Assembly: GCA_014381545.1 (NCBI GenBank)
Contig: JACNLL010000024.1
Coordinates: 1 to 61,728 of the forward strand
Length of the DNA: 61,728 nt
DNA from: Candidatus Desulfaltia bathyphila
GTDB taxonomy: Bacteria; Desulfobacterota; Desulfobacteria; Desulfobacterales; ETH-SRB1
Reading direction: 5' to 3'
Shown: positions 35,122 to 52,830 of the stretch, piece after piece
Numbering within the stretch: position 1 is the first letter of the stretch
Layout of the letters: the number at the start of each line of letters is the position of its first letter
Translations under genes and position numbers: made by a program
Notes under the pieces: generated by a model
The model's input: the letters and a program-made list of their open reading frames with translations, nothing else
What the model was told of the DNA's origin: nothing
Databases searched by the model: none

Positions 35122-35298
35122 TTAATGACCGTGTTTGTGAGGGCCGTGTTCGTCTAAATGTTCATGAGTATGCTCATCTGCCGGTCCGCTGTGAGTGTGT
35201 TCATGGCTGTGTTCATGCTCGTGAGAGTGCGCATGCCTTGTCTCTCCGTGTAAATGGTCGTGCGCATGTACATGTTTATGCGTATGTTTCCCTTCCAT
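35122..35298 (-). CDS. 58-aa histidine-rich peptide (22 His), putative metal-binding/storage protein; absent from ORF track
   Basis: Hand translation MEGKHTHKHVHAHDHLHGETRHAHSHEHEHSHEHTHSGPADEHTHEHLDEHGPHKHGH; AAGGAGG RBS upstream of ATG. Confidence 0.85.
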   Translation of the reverse strand: MEGKHTHKHVHAHDHLHGETRHAHSHEHEHSHEHTHSGPADEHTHEHLDEHGPHKHGH

Positions 35299-35389
35299 GA
35301 TAAAGCCTCCTTTTCATAAGTTGCAAAAGCCCTTCGTGGACTAATTTTTTTGAATGTAAACACCAACGACTAATCCGTCAATCAAATTA

Positions 35390-35441
35390 TTGAAGAACCC
35401 CGCAGCAAGCTGCGAGGAATGCGCTCGCTGTTGCAGTTCAC
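35390..35441. repeat. TTGAA...TTCA(C) miniature repeat family, copy D
   Basis: TTGAAGAACCCCGCAGCAAGCTGCGAGGAATGCGCTCGCTGTTGCAGTTCAC. Confidence 0.85.
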
Positions 35442-35478
35442 ACCAGGATTTGAGCTTGGCTCGCTAAAACAATGCCTA

Positions 35479-35550
35479 TTGGTTTGTTTTGGTTATTTTT
35501 GGTAAGAATTGAAATAATCGAAAAAATATATTGACTTATATTAACTTATT
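35479..35550. promoter_or_regulatory. Helically phased direct repeats in divergent promoter region
   Basis: TTGGT at 35479, 35489, 35499; TTGACTTATA/TTAACTTATT at 35531 and 35541. Confidence 0.45.
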
Positions 35551-35591
35551 AAATACAAACCAAAACTATCTCAAGTAAAGGAGAATAAGAT

Positions 35592-36503
35592 ATGAAACAG
35601 TTACTTTCAACCAAAGAGGTTGCGCAGTTTCTGGATATTAACGAAAAGATGGTATATAGCCTTGTTGCCGAAAAGGGGCTTCCGGCAACAAAAATTACAG
35701 GCAAGTGGCTTTTCCCGCGATATTTGGTGGAACAATGGATTGAAACCAATACCATCAACTATCCAAAGCCATCAACCTCTCTTCCTCCTTACCAGGGATT
35801 GCTGATAATAACCGGAAGCAACGACCTGCTCTTAGACAAAACTATTTCCCTTTTCAATACCCTGTATCCCGACCATGTGGCTGTCTTTGGAAACCTTGGG
35901 AGCATGGGAGGTTTGAGGGCGCTGCGCCAGAATTTGTGCCATATAGCCTCAAGCCATCTGCTCCAGGATAATGAAACGGAATACAATTTTGATTTTGCCA
36001 CCAAAGAGCTGGATAAAATGCCTGCTGTTGTCAATTTTTGCAAACGTGAACAGGGCATACTTGTGCAAAAAGGAAATCCCAAAAAAATTAAATCGTTTTC
36101 CGATATCGCCCGGCCGGGGATCAGGATAGTAAATCGTCCTCTTGGAACCGGCACACGCCTTTTATTTGATCGTATGCTTAAGGAGGCTGGAATTAACTGC
36201 GAAAAAATCAAAGGATACCATAATGAACTGTCACGGCATATGGATGTTGGCCTTGAAATATTAGCCGGCCGTGCCGATGCCGGGACCGGGATTAAGCCGG
36301 TAGCCTCTCTTCTTGGCCTTGAATTTATCCCGGTTCGCTGGGAGCGTTACGATCTTCTCATTACAAAGGAAAGATTTTTCGATAAAGGGGTGCAGCTTTT
36401 CATGGGTCTTCTCCATGAGCAGGCTTTTTTTGACCTGGCAAAAAATCTCGATGGTTATGATGTTAATACAAGCGGCAAAGTGATTTTCCCACAAGAAACT
36501 TAA
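35592..36503 (+). CDS. Excisionase-like HTH + periplasmic-binding-like domain regulator (TaoR-like, Mo/W responsive)
   Basis: LLST.EVA.FL.INEKMVY.L N-terminus; GSND, GSMGGL, REQG, NRPLGTGTR.L PBP domain; first gene of tup operon. Confidence 0.82.
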   Translation: MKQLLSTKEVAQFLDINEKMVYSLVAEKGLPATKITGKWLFPRYLVEQWIETNTINYPKPSTSLPPYQGLLIITGSNDLLLDKTISLFNTLYPDHVAVFGNLGSMGGLRALRQNLCHIASSHLLQDNETEYNFDFATKELDKMPAVVNFCKREQGILVQKGNPKKIKSFSDIARPGIRIVNRPLGTGTRLLFDRMLKEAGINCEKIKGYHNELSRHMDVGLEILAGRADAGTGIKPVASLLGLEFIPVRWERYDLLITKERFFDKGVQLFMGLLHEQAFFDLAKNLDGYDVNTSGKVIFPQET

Positions 36504-36518
36504 AAGGAGGAAAATGCG

Positions 36519-49998: not shown

Positions 49999-50885
49999 CG
50001 TGATAAGACCCAGCTATGCTTTATGAAGAAATAACCAAAGATAACAAGAAAGGTGTAAAAGAGAGAGAGAAATATAATTCCATAGTGAACTGCCTTCTGC
50101 AGATGGCCCTTCAGCCCGGGAAGAAGTAAAAGGATGGCAAAGAAAATAAGAGGTGCGGCAATTCCGGCAACAATGGGCGGGAGCACGCCAAGGCATACCT
50201 GTATTCCCAGAAAAAACCATGGCCCCTTTACGAGTTCGATTTTGGCATGGGGCGGAATATCCATGGGCATTCTTACAAGCAAAGAATATATGAACAAACC
50301 CGCTGTTGTAAAAAGGAGAAATCCGGCCTGGGAGAACCAGTTGTTAATGTGGTCACGGATAAGAAATATAAGTAATATTGGTAAAAAAAAGACGTGATAA
50401 AGATAGGGTAGCCAGAAAAACATTTCACCCGGTCTTATGACAAATCTTGTAATGGTTTCTCCAGCAACCGGAATCTCTTTCAGTATGTTATAAAAGATAT
50501 TCCCTGCATATATTCCTTCTTTGTCACCTTTGAGGATATATCCTGTAAAAAGTATAAAGAAACAGATGATCAGAGGAATGACAAGGCCTGCCCATTTCCC
50601 GACCGAAAAGCCTTTGTAGCGGCGTTTCATAAAGTGATCAACAATGTGGATCAACATCAAAATGACAAACAACTGGCCGGAAGCATAGTGCAATCTTCTA
50701 AAAAAAAAGCCATACGGGATAACCGTTGTAATCTCCTCCACGTTCCTGAACACGTTTCCAAATGGATAATATTGACAGGTCAAAATTATCCCGGAGATGA
50801 AGCATACGAGCAATGCGGATAGACTTATCCGCGGTATGCAGAAAGACATCTTATGATTAATGCCCATCAACGGCAGACTCTCCAT
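49995..50885 (-). CDS. Cytochrome b subunit of a bc-type complex
   Basis: RRLHYASG, IHIVDHF, FTGY.L.GD, YHV heme-ligand pattern; GPWFFLG. Confidence 0.82.
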   Translation of the reverse strand: MESLPLMGINHKMSFCIPRISLSALLVCFISGIILTCQYYPFGNVFRNVEEITTVIPYGFFFRRLHYASGQLFVILMLIHIVDHFMKRRYKGFSVGKWAGLVIPLIICFFILFTGYILKGDKEGIYAGNIFYNILKEIPVAGETITRFVIRPGEMFFWLPYLYHVFFLPILLIFLIRDHINNWFSQAGFLLFTTAGLFIYSLLVRMPMDIPPHAKIELVKGPWFFLGIQVCLGVLPPIVAGIAAPLIFFAILLLLPGLKGHLQKAVHYGIIFLSLFYTFLVIFGYFFIKHSWVLSR

Positions 50886-50889
50886 TGTT

Positions 50890-51291
50890 CTACTCTTTCA
50901 GTGTTATTATCAAATCGCCGTTTTTCTCTTTTCTGACAGGAAGCAGGGAAAGAGATTTTTTTGCCGGCCCGGACAACCTTTTGCCATTTTTGTCGTATAT
51001 ACTTCCGTGACAGGGACAGTGAAATTCACTCTTTCTCTCGTTATAGGCAACAGTGCACCCTAAATGTGTACACTTGGCAGAAATAGCCTCAGAGCCGTTC
51101 TCTTTTCTTTTCAAATAAACACCCTGTTTATAGTTAATCTTAAGCAAGGTTTCAGAAGGATGAAAAATTACCGTTTTTATTGTTTCCTTGGCGTGGGAAA
51201 GAAATCGCAGGATTGGGTAAACAATTAATCCAACACCAAAAAAAGAAAATAAGCCGTGGGCTAAGTTTTTAAAAAACTCTCTTCTTTTCAT
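50890..51291 (-). CDS. Rieske iron-sulfur subunit (Tat-exported)
   Basis: KRREFFK, CTHLGC, CPCHGS. Confidence 0.9.
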   Translation of the reverse strand: MKRREFFKNLAHGLFSFFGVGLIVYPILRFLSHAKETIKTVIFHPSETLLKINYKQGVYLKRKENGSEAISAKCTHLGCTVAYNERKSEFHCPCHGSIYDKNGKRLSGPAKKSLSLLPVRKEKNGDLIITLKE

Positions 51292-51323
51292 ATCTAAGCG
51301 TAACCTGATGTTTATACTAAGAC

Positions 51324-51485
51324 CTTTGCAAAACCCCAGCTTTTACCCAGTTCCGGTCATTGCGAGGCACAAAGTGCCGCGGCAATCTTGTGGATTGTTA
51401 ACATGTTGTAAGATTGCTTCACTCGCGCAGCGCAGGCGCTTGCGCCGCGTGTCGCTCGCAATGACGATATTGGTGTTATGCAAAG
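51324..51485. repeat. REP-like palindromic element
   Basis: GTCATTGCGAG (51356) / CTCGCAATGAC (51455) arms inside outer TTTGCAAAA.CC / GG.GTTATGCAAAG arms. Confidence 0.75.
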
Positions 51486-51882
51486 CTTTCATACTGTCCT
51501 ATTACAATCGTACTTAGACGAGCGTCTCAATAATAACAAGTCGAGTTTTTTATAACATAAATTTCTTTGTTTGGAGGTATTAAAAAATATTATCAGCGTA
51601 TAAAAATTAATGATATCATAAAAATTTAAATACAACCTGCCCCTGTTTAACAATATCCAGACAACCTTCCCCTGGAGAATTCTACTGTTTAATTAAATAG
51701 CTATATAGCCATAAGAAATATTTATCTGCATATAATATTTACTGATTTGACTTCTTTTCCGAAAAAATCCAAATTGAAATATTATTTTGGTGTAAAAGTT
51801 GGGGAAATAGGTTCAGATAGACAAAAAAGGCAAAGACATAAAAAGGATCTGTTATAACTTAATAGTAAGGAGGAAGGGTTTT

Positions 51883-52830
51883 ATGGAAGAATCAAGAATA
51901 ATATCACGAAGAAACTTTTTGAAGGGCAGCACTGGTGTCGTTGGGGCCGGAGCCCTGGCGGTCGGCCTTGGTGTGGGCTCCCTTGTCAGCCCAGGCACAG
52001 CCATAGCCAAGGCAAAGGAACTCCCATATCCGTTTGCAAGACCTACGCGGAAGAAACTAATGGATATTGATATGGTCTCAAAAATTACTTACGAAGGATA
52101 CTTTGGGAAAAAACCCGACGGAAGCAAACTCCCCGGCGGAGGCTGAATGTACGCAGTTGCTTCCGGGTTGATTGAAGCAATGAAAGCAATAATGCCTAAT
52201 AGTGGCGCTGGCAGCGAATGGTACAAAATACCAGCCCAGATATTTTCCTTTGGCGCTGGAGGCATTCAAATGTGGGGCACTCTCTGCGGTACTCTGACTG
52301 GTTGCTTATCTGTATTGAATATGATGAAACTGCACGGAAAACTGGGAAATGAGATTATGGGATGGTATAGTACAACTGAGTTTCCAACCGGAAATGTTTG
52401 GGATATATACAAAGAAGGTGGTTGGAAGCCACATTATACTCCAGTCCCAGACAACAAGGTGCTTGCTCATACGACATCTGATTCGCCACTATGCCACGTC
52501 TCGATCAGCAAATGGCTCTCCGAAGCAGGCATAAGTTACAACGATAAAGGCGAGCCTCCACACTCGGCGCCTTTAAAAAAAGACCGCTGCGCCAAAGTAG
52601 CCTCAGATACTGCTCGAAAGTGCGCCGAGCTTGTCAATGATTTTGTTCAGGGTAAGTTTAAAGCAACAGATTGGTTTGCAGGAACAGAGTCTAAAGGGTG
52701 TATAGACTGTCACTCTTATCGCGGGAAAAAGACAGCCGAAGAATCGCAGGAAAACACCCTCAGCCTGATGGACTGTCGTGGTTGCCATACTGAAGACGCC
52801 AAGATCGTGAGCAAAGATCATCCGGAATAA
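51883..52830 (+). CDS. Split-Soret cytochrome c / C-GCAxxG-C-C family protein, predicted selenoprotein (Sec at UGA 52144-52146)
   Basis: Tat motif SRRNFLK; two adjacent in-frame ORFs joined by GG-[TGA]-MY; TLCG, SPLCHVSIS, DRC; two C-terminal CxxCH. Confidence 0.85.
52157..52180 (+). promoter_or_regulatory. SECIS-like hairpin for split-Soret gene
   Basis: TTGCTTC-CGGGTTGATT-GAAGCAA, stem starts 10 nt after UGA. Confidence 0.65.

Follow-up and report, generated by a model that had tools for sequence, protein, structure and literature searches.

Selenocysteine codons and a strain-variable redox segment in a composite locus of Candidatus Desulfaltia bathyphila

The closest described counterpart of the redox genes considered here is the ext cluster of Geobacter sulfurreducens, which encodes the rhodanese ExtH and has 12-haem and 10-haem cytochromes, a Rieske protein and a cytochrome b among ExtM, ExtN, ExtO and ExtP (PMC5877670). 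The selenocysteine (Sec)-containing pentahaem ExtKL of the Geobacter Ext cluster is the polysulfide reductase MccSep (PMC13510729). A 2026 review catalogues arsenite methyltransferase (NF008823, motif UxxG), DUF1573 (UGC) and forms 1 and 2 of the C-GCAxxG-C-C family as prokaryotic selenoproteins (PMC13188914); the first report of OS_HP2 and of a "putative redox protein" came from symbionts of Olavius (PMC1976440). Here we analyze a stretch of 61,728 nucleotides (the window; contig C69 in our labels) from Candidatus Desulfaltia bathyphila, and within it a region of about 18 kb at 35122-52830. Gene content was taken from a listing of open reading frames (ORFs), their translations and Pfam/NCBIfam scans, which agree with a preliminary description of the stretch in placing genes for tungsten (W) uptake, arsenic (As) handling, a His-rich peptide, a LysR regulator, a rhodanese, a Rieske/cytochrome b operon with multihaem cytochromes (the bc/multihaem operon) and a split-Soret-like protein side by side. 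The explanation we favor, at a probability of about 0.6, is that three UGA codons of the region encode Sec, that the region joins a backbone of the genus to a variable insert, and that this insert may serve chalcogen reduction, the last part being more tentative than the other two.

UGA codons and selenocysteine decoding

Three genes of the region each contain an in-frame UGA that aligns to a conserved Cys and beyond which the frame continues: the gene for the arsenite methyltransferase ArsM (43093-43095), that for OS_HP2/DUF1573 (43509-43511) and that for the split-Soret-like protein (52144-52146). Each UGA is followed by a hairpin of the Sec insertion sequence (SECIS) type with G/U in the apical loop. 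The ArsM hairpin (43109-43128) lies 13 nt after the UGA and has a 7-bp stem and the loop GGGUGA, the OS_HP2 hairpin (43522-43541) lies 10 nt after it with a 7-bp stem and the loop CAGUGU, and the split-Soret-like hairpin (52156-52181) lies 9 nt after it with an 8-bp stem, whose first pair is G.U, and a loop of 10 nt. The preliminary description had placed UGA at Cys positions in these three genes, which the alignments, the UGAs of relatives and the Sec machinery bear out, and had given each a 7-bp stem 10-13 nt downstream; all three hairpins are present, with the ranges widened to 9-13 nt and 7-8 bp. In the genome as a whole such a hairpin follows 1513 of 77225 TGA triplets (2.0%), and the joint chance of three hairpins is about 8e-6, assuming independence.

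The UGA codons are also retained in relatives. That of ArsM is kept in three congeners (L049, L063 and L081; we label loci with L and genomes with G), that of OS_HP2 in six loci (L045, L049, L050, L063, L070 and L081) and that of the split-Soret-like gene in L045 and G074, with the Cys codons TGC or TGT in more distant ArsM orthologues and split-Soret paralogues. The hairpins are kept in orthologues as well, and across the congeners one pair of the ArsM stem changes from U-A through U.G to C-G, a compensatory pair. The genome encodes tRNA-Sec, SelB, SelA and a SelD that itself contains UGA. Because the Cys/Sec alignments, the hairpins against their 2.0% background, the UGAs kept in orthologues and the Sec machinery all point the same way, comparison of sequences identifies the three UGAs as genuine Sec codons in a genome that decodes Sec.

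ArsM (42490-43269, plus strand; 335 bits against an NF008823 cut-off of 263) has Sec at residue 202. In an alignment to Cyanidioschyzon CmArsM, C64 corresponds to Cys72, C152 to Cys174 and U202 to Cys224, and by this correspondence Sec stands in for the third As(III)-binding Cys; the gene is intact. The split-Soret-like gene (51883-52830, plus strand) encodes a dihaem C-GCAxxG-C-C protein with a twin-arginine translocation (Tat) signal, Sec at residue 88 and haem motifs CIDCH at 273 and CRGCH at 298. It scores 31 bits against the PF09719 cut-off of 27 and only 16.7 against 47.4 for TIGR01909, and at 92.9 bits it does not reach the cut-off of 400 for the split-Soret cytochrome c equivalog NF047622, so that with respect to the protein in PDB 1H21 it counts as a homologue but not as an equivalog. 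In alignments, UGA 52144 falls on the Cys of GFGCGFG in 1H21 (E 9e-17) and on that of GGCM in full-length homologues, and U88, C135, C204 and C236 are invariant columns of the family alignment. This alignment puts Sec in place of the first of the four family cysteines, in a gene that reads as intact. The position is one that, from work on 1H21, we take to bind a non-haem iron centre. The third gene, OS_HP2/DUF1573 (43275-43694, plus strand; 133 bits against an NF041425 cut-off of 100), has the motif SSG-U-GC and is a remnant, as described below.

All three genes belong to protein, including selenoprotein, families that are already known. Standard gene callers shorten each of them, with public calls beginning at the Met after the UGA, and many database homologues of the split-Soret-like protein are likewise truncated calls of this kind. 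Because the gene calls begin after the UGA, annotations of these marine sediment Desulfobacterales lack both Sec-ArsM and the Sec split-Soret protein.

A genome-wide scan for UGA read-through, combining coding potential with the hairpin rule, gave 173 candidates. Besides the three genes it recovered two HdrA, MvhD, FdhA, a hydrogenase large subunit and a HesB-like protein, whose hairpin loops (GGTC, GTC and GGC) are typical ones; the scan is too noisy to give an exact size for the selenoproteome. Further UGA genes were recognized by motif: SelD (C41:20533-21459), the two HdrA, MvhD, FdhA, the hydrogenase large subunit (RSCGVU) and the HesB-like protein (GGUGG), with the sites other than that of SelD at C45:9055, C66:22292 and 25369, C102:31545, C32:9812 and C78:45749.

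A genus backbone and a variable segment

The region is composite, consisting of a backbone found in the genus and an 8.9-kb variable insert at a slot that opens with the LysR gene. The strain-variable segment (44069-52981; this and the repeats below are given without strand) runs from LysR through the split-Soret-like gene and, by blastn junction mapping, is absent from the congener G001. That this reflects an insertion here and not a loss in G001 is judged from just three congeners. The G001 row is regulator-TupABC-ArsR-ArsP-Trx3-Trx-CcdA-ACR3-ArsM(U)-...-OS_HP2, directly followed by genes homologous to those at 53001, 53748 and 54527 of the window. A second congener, G006, has LysR in the same place, but about 45.2 to 52.86 kb are exchanged there for genes encoding an Fe-S subunit and a PhsA-like molybdoenzyme with a Tat signal, whose 302 bits do not reach the cut-off. 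A third, G004 (L049 6509-10203), has LysR cut at residue 242, followed by a nucleotidyltransferase-toxin-like protein and a helicase-like gene, and this cut LysR with unrelated genes after it marks the slot as an apparent insertion hotspot.

On the backbone side, a promoter-like site (TTGACA-17-TATATT, 39356-39384) precedes a plus-strand row at 39414-42443 that encodes ArsR (CVC), an ArsP_1 permease (CSC), an MTH895/ArsE-type thioredoxin, a membrane-anchored thioredoxin (CIPC) and a CcdA/DsbD-type membrane protein. The order from ArsR to CcdA is conserved in five congeners at 80-95% identity. ACR3, which occupies 1.2 kb between CcdA and ArsM in G001 (L081), has shrunk here to 35 bp (42444-42478), and tblastn found no match to it anywhere in the genome. 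The remaining ArsR-controlled unit of ArsP, thioredoxins, CcdA and ArsM could methylate As(III) and export methylarsenite.

Downstream of ArsM the backbone is eroded. OS_HP2 in the congeners (L049 from G004, L063 from G006 and L081 from G001) has 240-249 aa, a signal peptide and two contiguous Ig-like domains. In the window, homology to these full-length orthologues begins at 43339, with about 15 N-terminal signal-peptide codons lost, and a 49-bp miniature-repeat insertion (43678-43726 by pairwise alignment with G001; boundary ambiguous by about 8 bp) shifts the frame between the domains, leaving the second as an ORF remnant at 43735-44064. The full-length, exported, two-domain architecture is thus absent, having neither the signal peptide nor a second domain in frame. 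A stretch of 2.1 kb that holds NfeD, an Fe-S protein, a 168-aa rhodanese and MauE in G001 is reduced to 68 bp (43271-43338), and neither these four genes nor ACR3 were found elsewhere in the genome. With these lesions, the OS_HP2 gene here is a decaying copy and probably non-functional. At this locus selenoprotein genes can be seen to have been acquired, exchanged and degraded in a single genus, through deletions and the insertion of a miniature repeat. Separately, in the unrelated setting of L070 an OS_HP2 homologue (2486-2887), which gene callers divide into 77 + 263 aa, has the UGA, and a bc/multihaem operon is 4 kb away.

Part of the gene set is linked again outside the genus. In L045, from an uncultured Desulfobacterales metagenome-assembled genome (MAG), the order is ArsR, ArsP (80% identity), Trx3, DGC, rhodanese, MauE, Trx, OS_HP2(UGA), TauE and LysR, and LysR is followed in turn by a C-GCAxxG-C-C protein with Cys, a split-Soret(UGA) at 50%, a rhodanese and TauE. 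In L052 (Desulfobacteraceae UBA2174) the ars/thiol unit, ArsM with Cys, LysR and a split-Soret paralogue fall within 13 kb, and LysR adjoins a C-GCAxxG-C-C/split-Soret gene in six loci overall (L045, L050, L051, L052, L054 and L058). Because of the linkage in L045 and L052 and the LysR pairs elsewhere, we regard ars/thiol, OS_HP2, LysR and split-Soret as a recurrent neighborhood. The tup genes, the His-rich peptide, the two-domain rhodanese and the bc/multihaem operon stand outside it.

The Candidatus Desulfaltia bathyphila genome has 2.07 Mb in 107 contigs, is 97% complete with 42% G+C, and is the second smallest listed for the genus and the smallest among those at least 90% complete; related loci carry the labels Desulfobacteraceae or Desulfobacterales. 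The window sequence is recovered in several marine and aquatic metagenomes, and unitigs from two studies span 39864-51375 and show no difference from it. The order LysR, rhodanese, cytochromes, cytochrome b, Rieske and split-Soret is repeated in two independent assemblies (a 70-kb ENA contig and GCA_016782935.1), and the gene arrangement is not an assembly artefact. Unitig breaks fall on dispersed repeats at 35.39-35.44 and 51.32-51.49 kb. The first is a copy (35385-35445, by blastn against the genome) at which unitigs break and depth rises 5-13 fold; it belongs to a miniature repeat resembling a repetitive extragenic palindrome or miniature inverted-repeat transposable element (REP/MITE-like), with the core GAACCGCAATAGCGAGCGCATTCCCCGTAGCTTGCTACAGGGAATCTTCAA and more than 25-30 copies across many contigs of the 2-Mb genome. 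Its copies in the window are at 30417-30461, 33006-33058, 35385-35445 and 43678-43726, one of them inside coding sequence. The second (51320-51490, by blastn) is another dispersed family, located between the divergent Rieske and split-Soret genes, where the assembly graph breaks and depth spikes 5-15x.

A candidate electron chain in the variable segment

The first gene of the segment encodes a LysR regulator (44141-45061, plus strand) near the 'selenium metabolism-associated' type, at 220 bits not reaching the NF040786 cut-off of 250. Its TGA at 45059 was considered as a fourth Sec codon and rejected, the protein having the normal C-terminus of its family and the TGA no hairpin; it is an ordinary stop. 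The exported rhodanese (45427-46464, plus strand) has two PF00581 domains, a signal-peptide-like N-terminus at an ATG that gene callers also use, and an active-site loop CQRGCR in domain 2. Its C-terminus (46390-46464) is an acidic tail ending in Cys (...QQEEDEGC), which could be a persulfide-relay arm. The only close relative of this rhodanese, at 68%, is in a MAG labelled Gammaproteobacteria (L010, 7366-8498; 13571-15690), and its position between IS3-type and Mu-like transposition genes suggests that the gene moves horizontally. As a clue to function this relative was set aside, having no partner genes beside it.

The bc/multihaem operon (46520-51291, minus strand) encodes a Rieske protein (50890-51291), a cytochrome b (49995-50885), a 12-haem cytochrome (48175-49998) and a 10-haem lipoprotein cytochrome (46520-48208), assigned by the family scans and, for the last two, by counting haem motifs. 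Three loci from Desulfobacterota MAGs keep the four genes together as a unit at 53-78% identity, with the Rieske protein down to 41% in L070. Upstream of the unit are PsrABC-like genes and a rhodanese in the closest of these loci, L068 (78%), and another molybdoenzyme in L069, and in L070 the unit is alone; the 12-/10-haem pair also occurs alone, without Rieske and cytochrome b, in L073 and L074. A pattern scan of the genome contigs for the 12-haem cytochrome returned distant relatives only, and protein-database homologues with their contigs were used instead. Ext-like clusters of the same genus (G002, G007 and G008) are about 31-36% identical, the value varying with the tool used, and were set aside as a different, paralogous system.

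None of the other 25 genomes of the family has the split-Soret-like protein, which at E <= 1e-35 occurs in 5 of 301 genomes of the order. A pattern scan of the genome contigs gave no relative, and for this protein, too, we turned to protein-database homologues. In G190 (L088 9591-13096), G227 (L089) and L093 (7001-10223), a Cys-type split-Soret-like gene is followed by one for a monohaem protein of about 115 aa and one for a multihaem cytochrome of about 660-690 aa; in G190 this cytochrome has 7 haems, and its C-terminal part is hydrophobic and, judged by eye, appears to span the membrane. The recurrence of this Cys-type operon suggests that split-Soret-type proteins may draw electrons from membrane-bound cytochrome modules.

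We tentatively propose, by analogy and at less than even odds, that the insert is a LysR-controlled periplasmic electron chain for chalcogen reduction, akin to Ext/MccSep. The Rieske/cytochrome b pair would oxidize menaquinol and hand the electrons to the 12-haem and 10-haem cytochromes, which would deliver them to the catalytic end, the Sec split-Soret protein; the exported rhodanese would carry sulfane sulfur or selenium. Substrates would be of the type of polysulfide, elemental sulfur (S0), thiosulfate or selenite, and the insert would be the analogue of Geobacter ExtH plus ExtKL (MccSep) plus ExtMNOPQ, with a non-homologous Sec cytochrome. We propose such a chain because the haems, Rieske protein and cytochrome b match the composition of Ext, because the L068 operon stands in a context of PsrABC-like genes and a rhodanese, and because the alternative cargo of G006 is Psr/Phs-like. 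The L045 locus, in which a rhodanese and TauE follow split-Soret(UGA), and the Cys-type homologues with their multihaem cytochromes argue in the same direction. The narrower claim, that the Sec split-Soret protein is the catalytic end of an undescribed respiratory reductase for polysulfide or selenite, replacing MccSep without homology and swappable with a PhsA-like enzyme under one LysR, is unlikely as it stands; if true, the split-Soret family would gain its first function, as would Sec at a putative iron-binding position.

Several observations weigh against the proposed chain. The insert's three units lie on different strands and have their own terminators; LysR and split-Soret pairs occur without the bc/multihaem module, and the operon, or its cytochrome pair alone, occurs without split-Soret or rhodanese. 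All Ext equivalog scores fall far under their cut-offs (ExtM 323/800, ExtP 88/290, ExtH 38/200). A route from Rieske/cytochrome b to the low-potential polysulfide couple is energetically awkward, and a higher-potential acceptor such as selenite or tetrathionate would therefore be favored.

Much of the same evidence bears on the possibility that these are neighbors without a shared job, LysR controlling only a stand-alone redox or stress Sec split-Soret protein and the rhodanese and bc/multihaem operon forming an unrelated respiratory module. LysR and a C-GCAxxG-C-C gene do form a pair alone in L050, L051, L054 and L058, the operon is by itself in L070 and the cytochrome pair in L073 and L074, the closest rhodanese relative sits beside insertion sequence (IS) elements without partner genes, and in the window the dispersed repeats at 51.32-51.49 kb separate the bc/multihaem and split-Soret units. 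However, G006 exchanges about 45.2 to 52.86 kb as a single block for its PhsA-like genes, a rhodanese stands beside split-Soret(UGA) in L045 and beside the bc/multihaem operon in L068, and large multihaem cytochromes are recurrent partners of split-Soret homologues. We consider this account of unconnected neighbors the main rival, only slightly less probable than the proposed chain.

The preliminary description went further than the proposed chain and read the whole 18 kb as one co-regulated, Se-dependent periplasmic metalloid/chalcogen system. In its favor, three selenoprotein genes fall within 9.1 kb, for which a rough calculation gives about 0.03 chance triples when an estimated 10-20 such genes are taken per 2.07-Mb genome; the ars/thiol/OS_HP2/LysR/split-Soret linkage returns in L045 and L052, and the tup-ars adjacency is kept in the genus. 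However, backbone and insert differ in history, tup is unlinked outside the genus, the His-rich peptide is strain-specific, OS_HP2 is degraded with its rhodanese/MauE partners deleted, and promoter-like and terminator-like sites divide the region into five or more separate transcription units. Among these sites are a bidirectional terminator with a 14-bp stem between the rhodanese and the convergent operon (46487-46521) and a terminator-like site at 52939-52954. A single functional island is accordingly not upheld, the backbone having its own promoter and terminators, 44069-52981 being strain-variable and tup being linked only in the genus, and the reading as one system is highly improbable. 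What survives of the Se-dependent chalcogen system is Sec decoding, the ars/OS_HP2/LysR/split-Soret linkage and the Ext-like composition; what does not is the DUF1573 part, whose copy lacks an export signal and partners. As to whether sub-clusters come apart in relatives, which had been named as grounds for giving the idea up, the bc/multihaem operon and two-domain rhodanese are unlinked in most, and ars/thiol, OS_HP2, LysR and split-Soret stay linked, in part, in L045 and L052.

Least probable of all is an oxidative direction, in which the rhodanese and split-Soret protein would take electrons from thiosulfate or sulfide and pass them through the multihaem cytochromes to the bc complex: nothing in the sequence fixes the direction of electron flow, and proteins with His/Cys haems or of rhodanese type act in thiosulfate oxidation (TsdA, SoxAX; PMC13510729), but Rieske/cytochrome b complexes normally oxidize quinol, the gene set (HdrA, MvhD and FdhA selenoproteins) is that of a strict anaerobe, and the alternative cargo of G006 is a reductase-type Psr/Phs enzyme.

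For the proposed reductive chain, the slot brings together, with a rhodanese and in a strain-variable manner, the split-Soret/C-GCAxxG-C-C family and a widespread Desulfobacterota operon of Rieske, cytochrome b and two multihaem cytochromes, both without known function. The shared slot with its rhodanese and the Psr/Phs-like swap in a sister genome therefore suggest a concrete assay, namely reduction of polysulfide, thiosulfate, tetrathionate and selenite by the Sec and Cys forms.

Flanking genes and comparison with described systems

At the upstream end of the region, a 58-aa His-rich ORF (35122-35298, minus strand) was identified by translation and has AAGGAGG 7-8 nt before its ATG. It has no match in the family scans, is absent from the same gap in the congener G005, and is specific to the Candidatus Desulfaltia bathyphila genome. 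The next gene (35592-36503, plus strand) encodes a regulator with an excisionase-type helix-turn-helix (PF12728, HTH_17; TIGR01764) and a domain like a periplasmic binding protein (PF12727), which probably responds to an oxyanion and which we take to be TunR-like. It is followed at 36519-39171 on the plus strand by an ATP-binding cassette (ABC) uptake system resembling TupA (36519-37424), TupB (37461-38156) and TupC (38116-39171, with a TOBE domain), named after the best NCBIfam matches. None reaches its equivalog cut-off (TupA 238/400, TupB 204/320, TupC 158/400; WtpC 190). A W or Mo oxyanion is the likely substrate, judging from the best matches to Tup/Wtp and the STTTST motif. The tup genes adjoin ars in G001, G005 and G006, and this linkage is confined to the genus.

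Downstream of the region, at window position 56360, an in-frame TGA has good coding potential on either side and an 8-bp hairpin 17 nt downstream; it probably separates two adjacent genes in the same frame. Two candidate RNA runs (X9 and X19) matched only fragments of related organisms and repeats.

Set against the described systems, the OS_HP2/DUF1573 gene resembles that of the Olavius symbionts (PMC1976440) in scoring over the NF041425 cut-off and in its UGC motif and SECIS-like hairpin, and differs in its lost signal peptide, its cut-off second domain and the loss of its rhodanese/MauE neighbors. The arsenic unit is like the known pairing of Sec-ArsM with ArsR-ArsP methylarsenite efflux in its score over the cut-off, its three Cys equivalents with U as the third and its CVC and CSC motifs; here, however, ACR3 is deleted and a thioredoxin/CcdA pair is embedded in the operon.

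The split-Soret-like protein shares with the Desulfovibrio desulfuricans ATCC 27774 split-Soret cytochrome c (1H21; PF09719, TIGR01909) homology over residues 85-308, the four Cys positions and two C-terminal CxxCH motifs, and with the wider split-Soret/C-GCAxxG-C-C family, of which Sec forms are already catalogued, the Tat signal seen in all full-length homologues. It differs from 1H21 in its Sec at the first Cys, its extra inserts and the bc/multihaem module alongside.

To the Psr/Phs reductases with Sud-like rhodanese the likeness is one of position and context, insofar as such genes fill the same LysR slot in G006 and lie, with a rhodanese, upstream of the closest bc/multihaem operon in L068, whereas the window has no molybdoenzyme. 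The comparison with extHIJKLMNOPQS of G. sulfurreducens is less direct in its details: MccSep/ExtKL (NF040886) has no match in 9 genomes of the genus, the porin ExtI and ExtJ and ExtS were not seen here, gene order and strands differ, and the Sec protein here, a Tat-exported dihaem member of the C-GCAxxG-C-C family, is not homologous to MccSep. The two loci nonetheless hold together the same set of a rhodanese, a Rieske protein, a cytochrome b, a 12-haem and a 10-haem cytochrome and one Sec c-type cytochrome, with ExtM and ExtP as the best NCBIfam matches.

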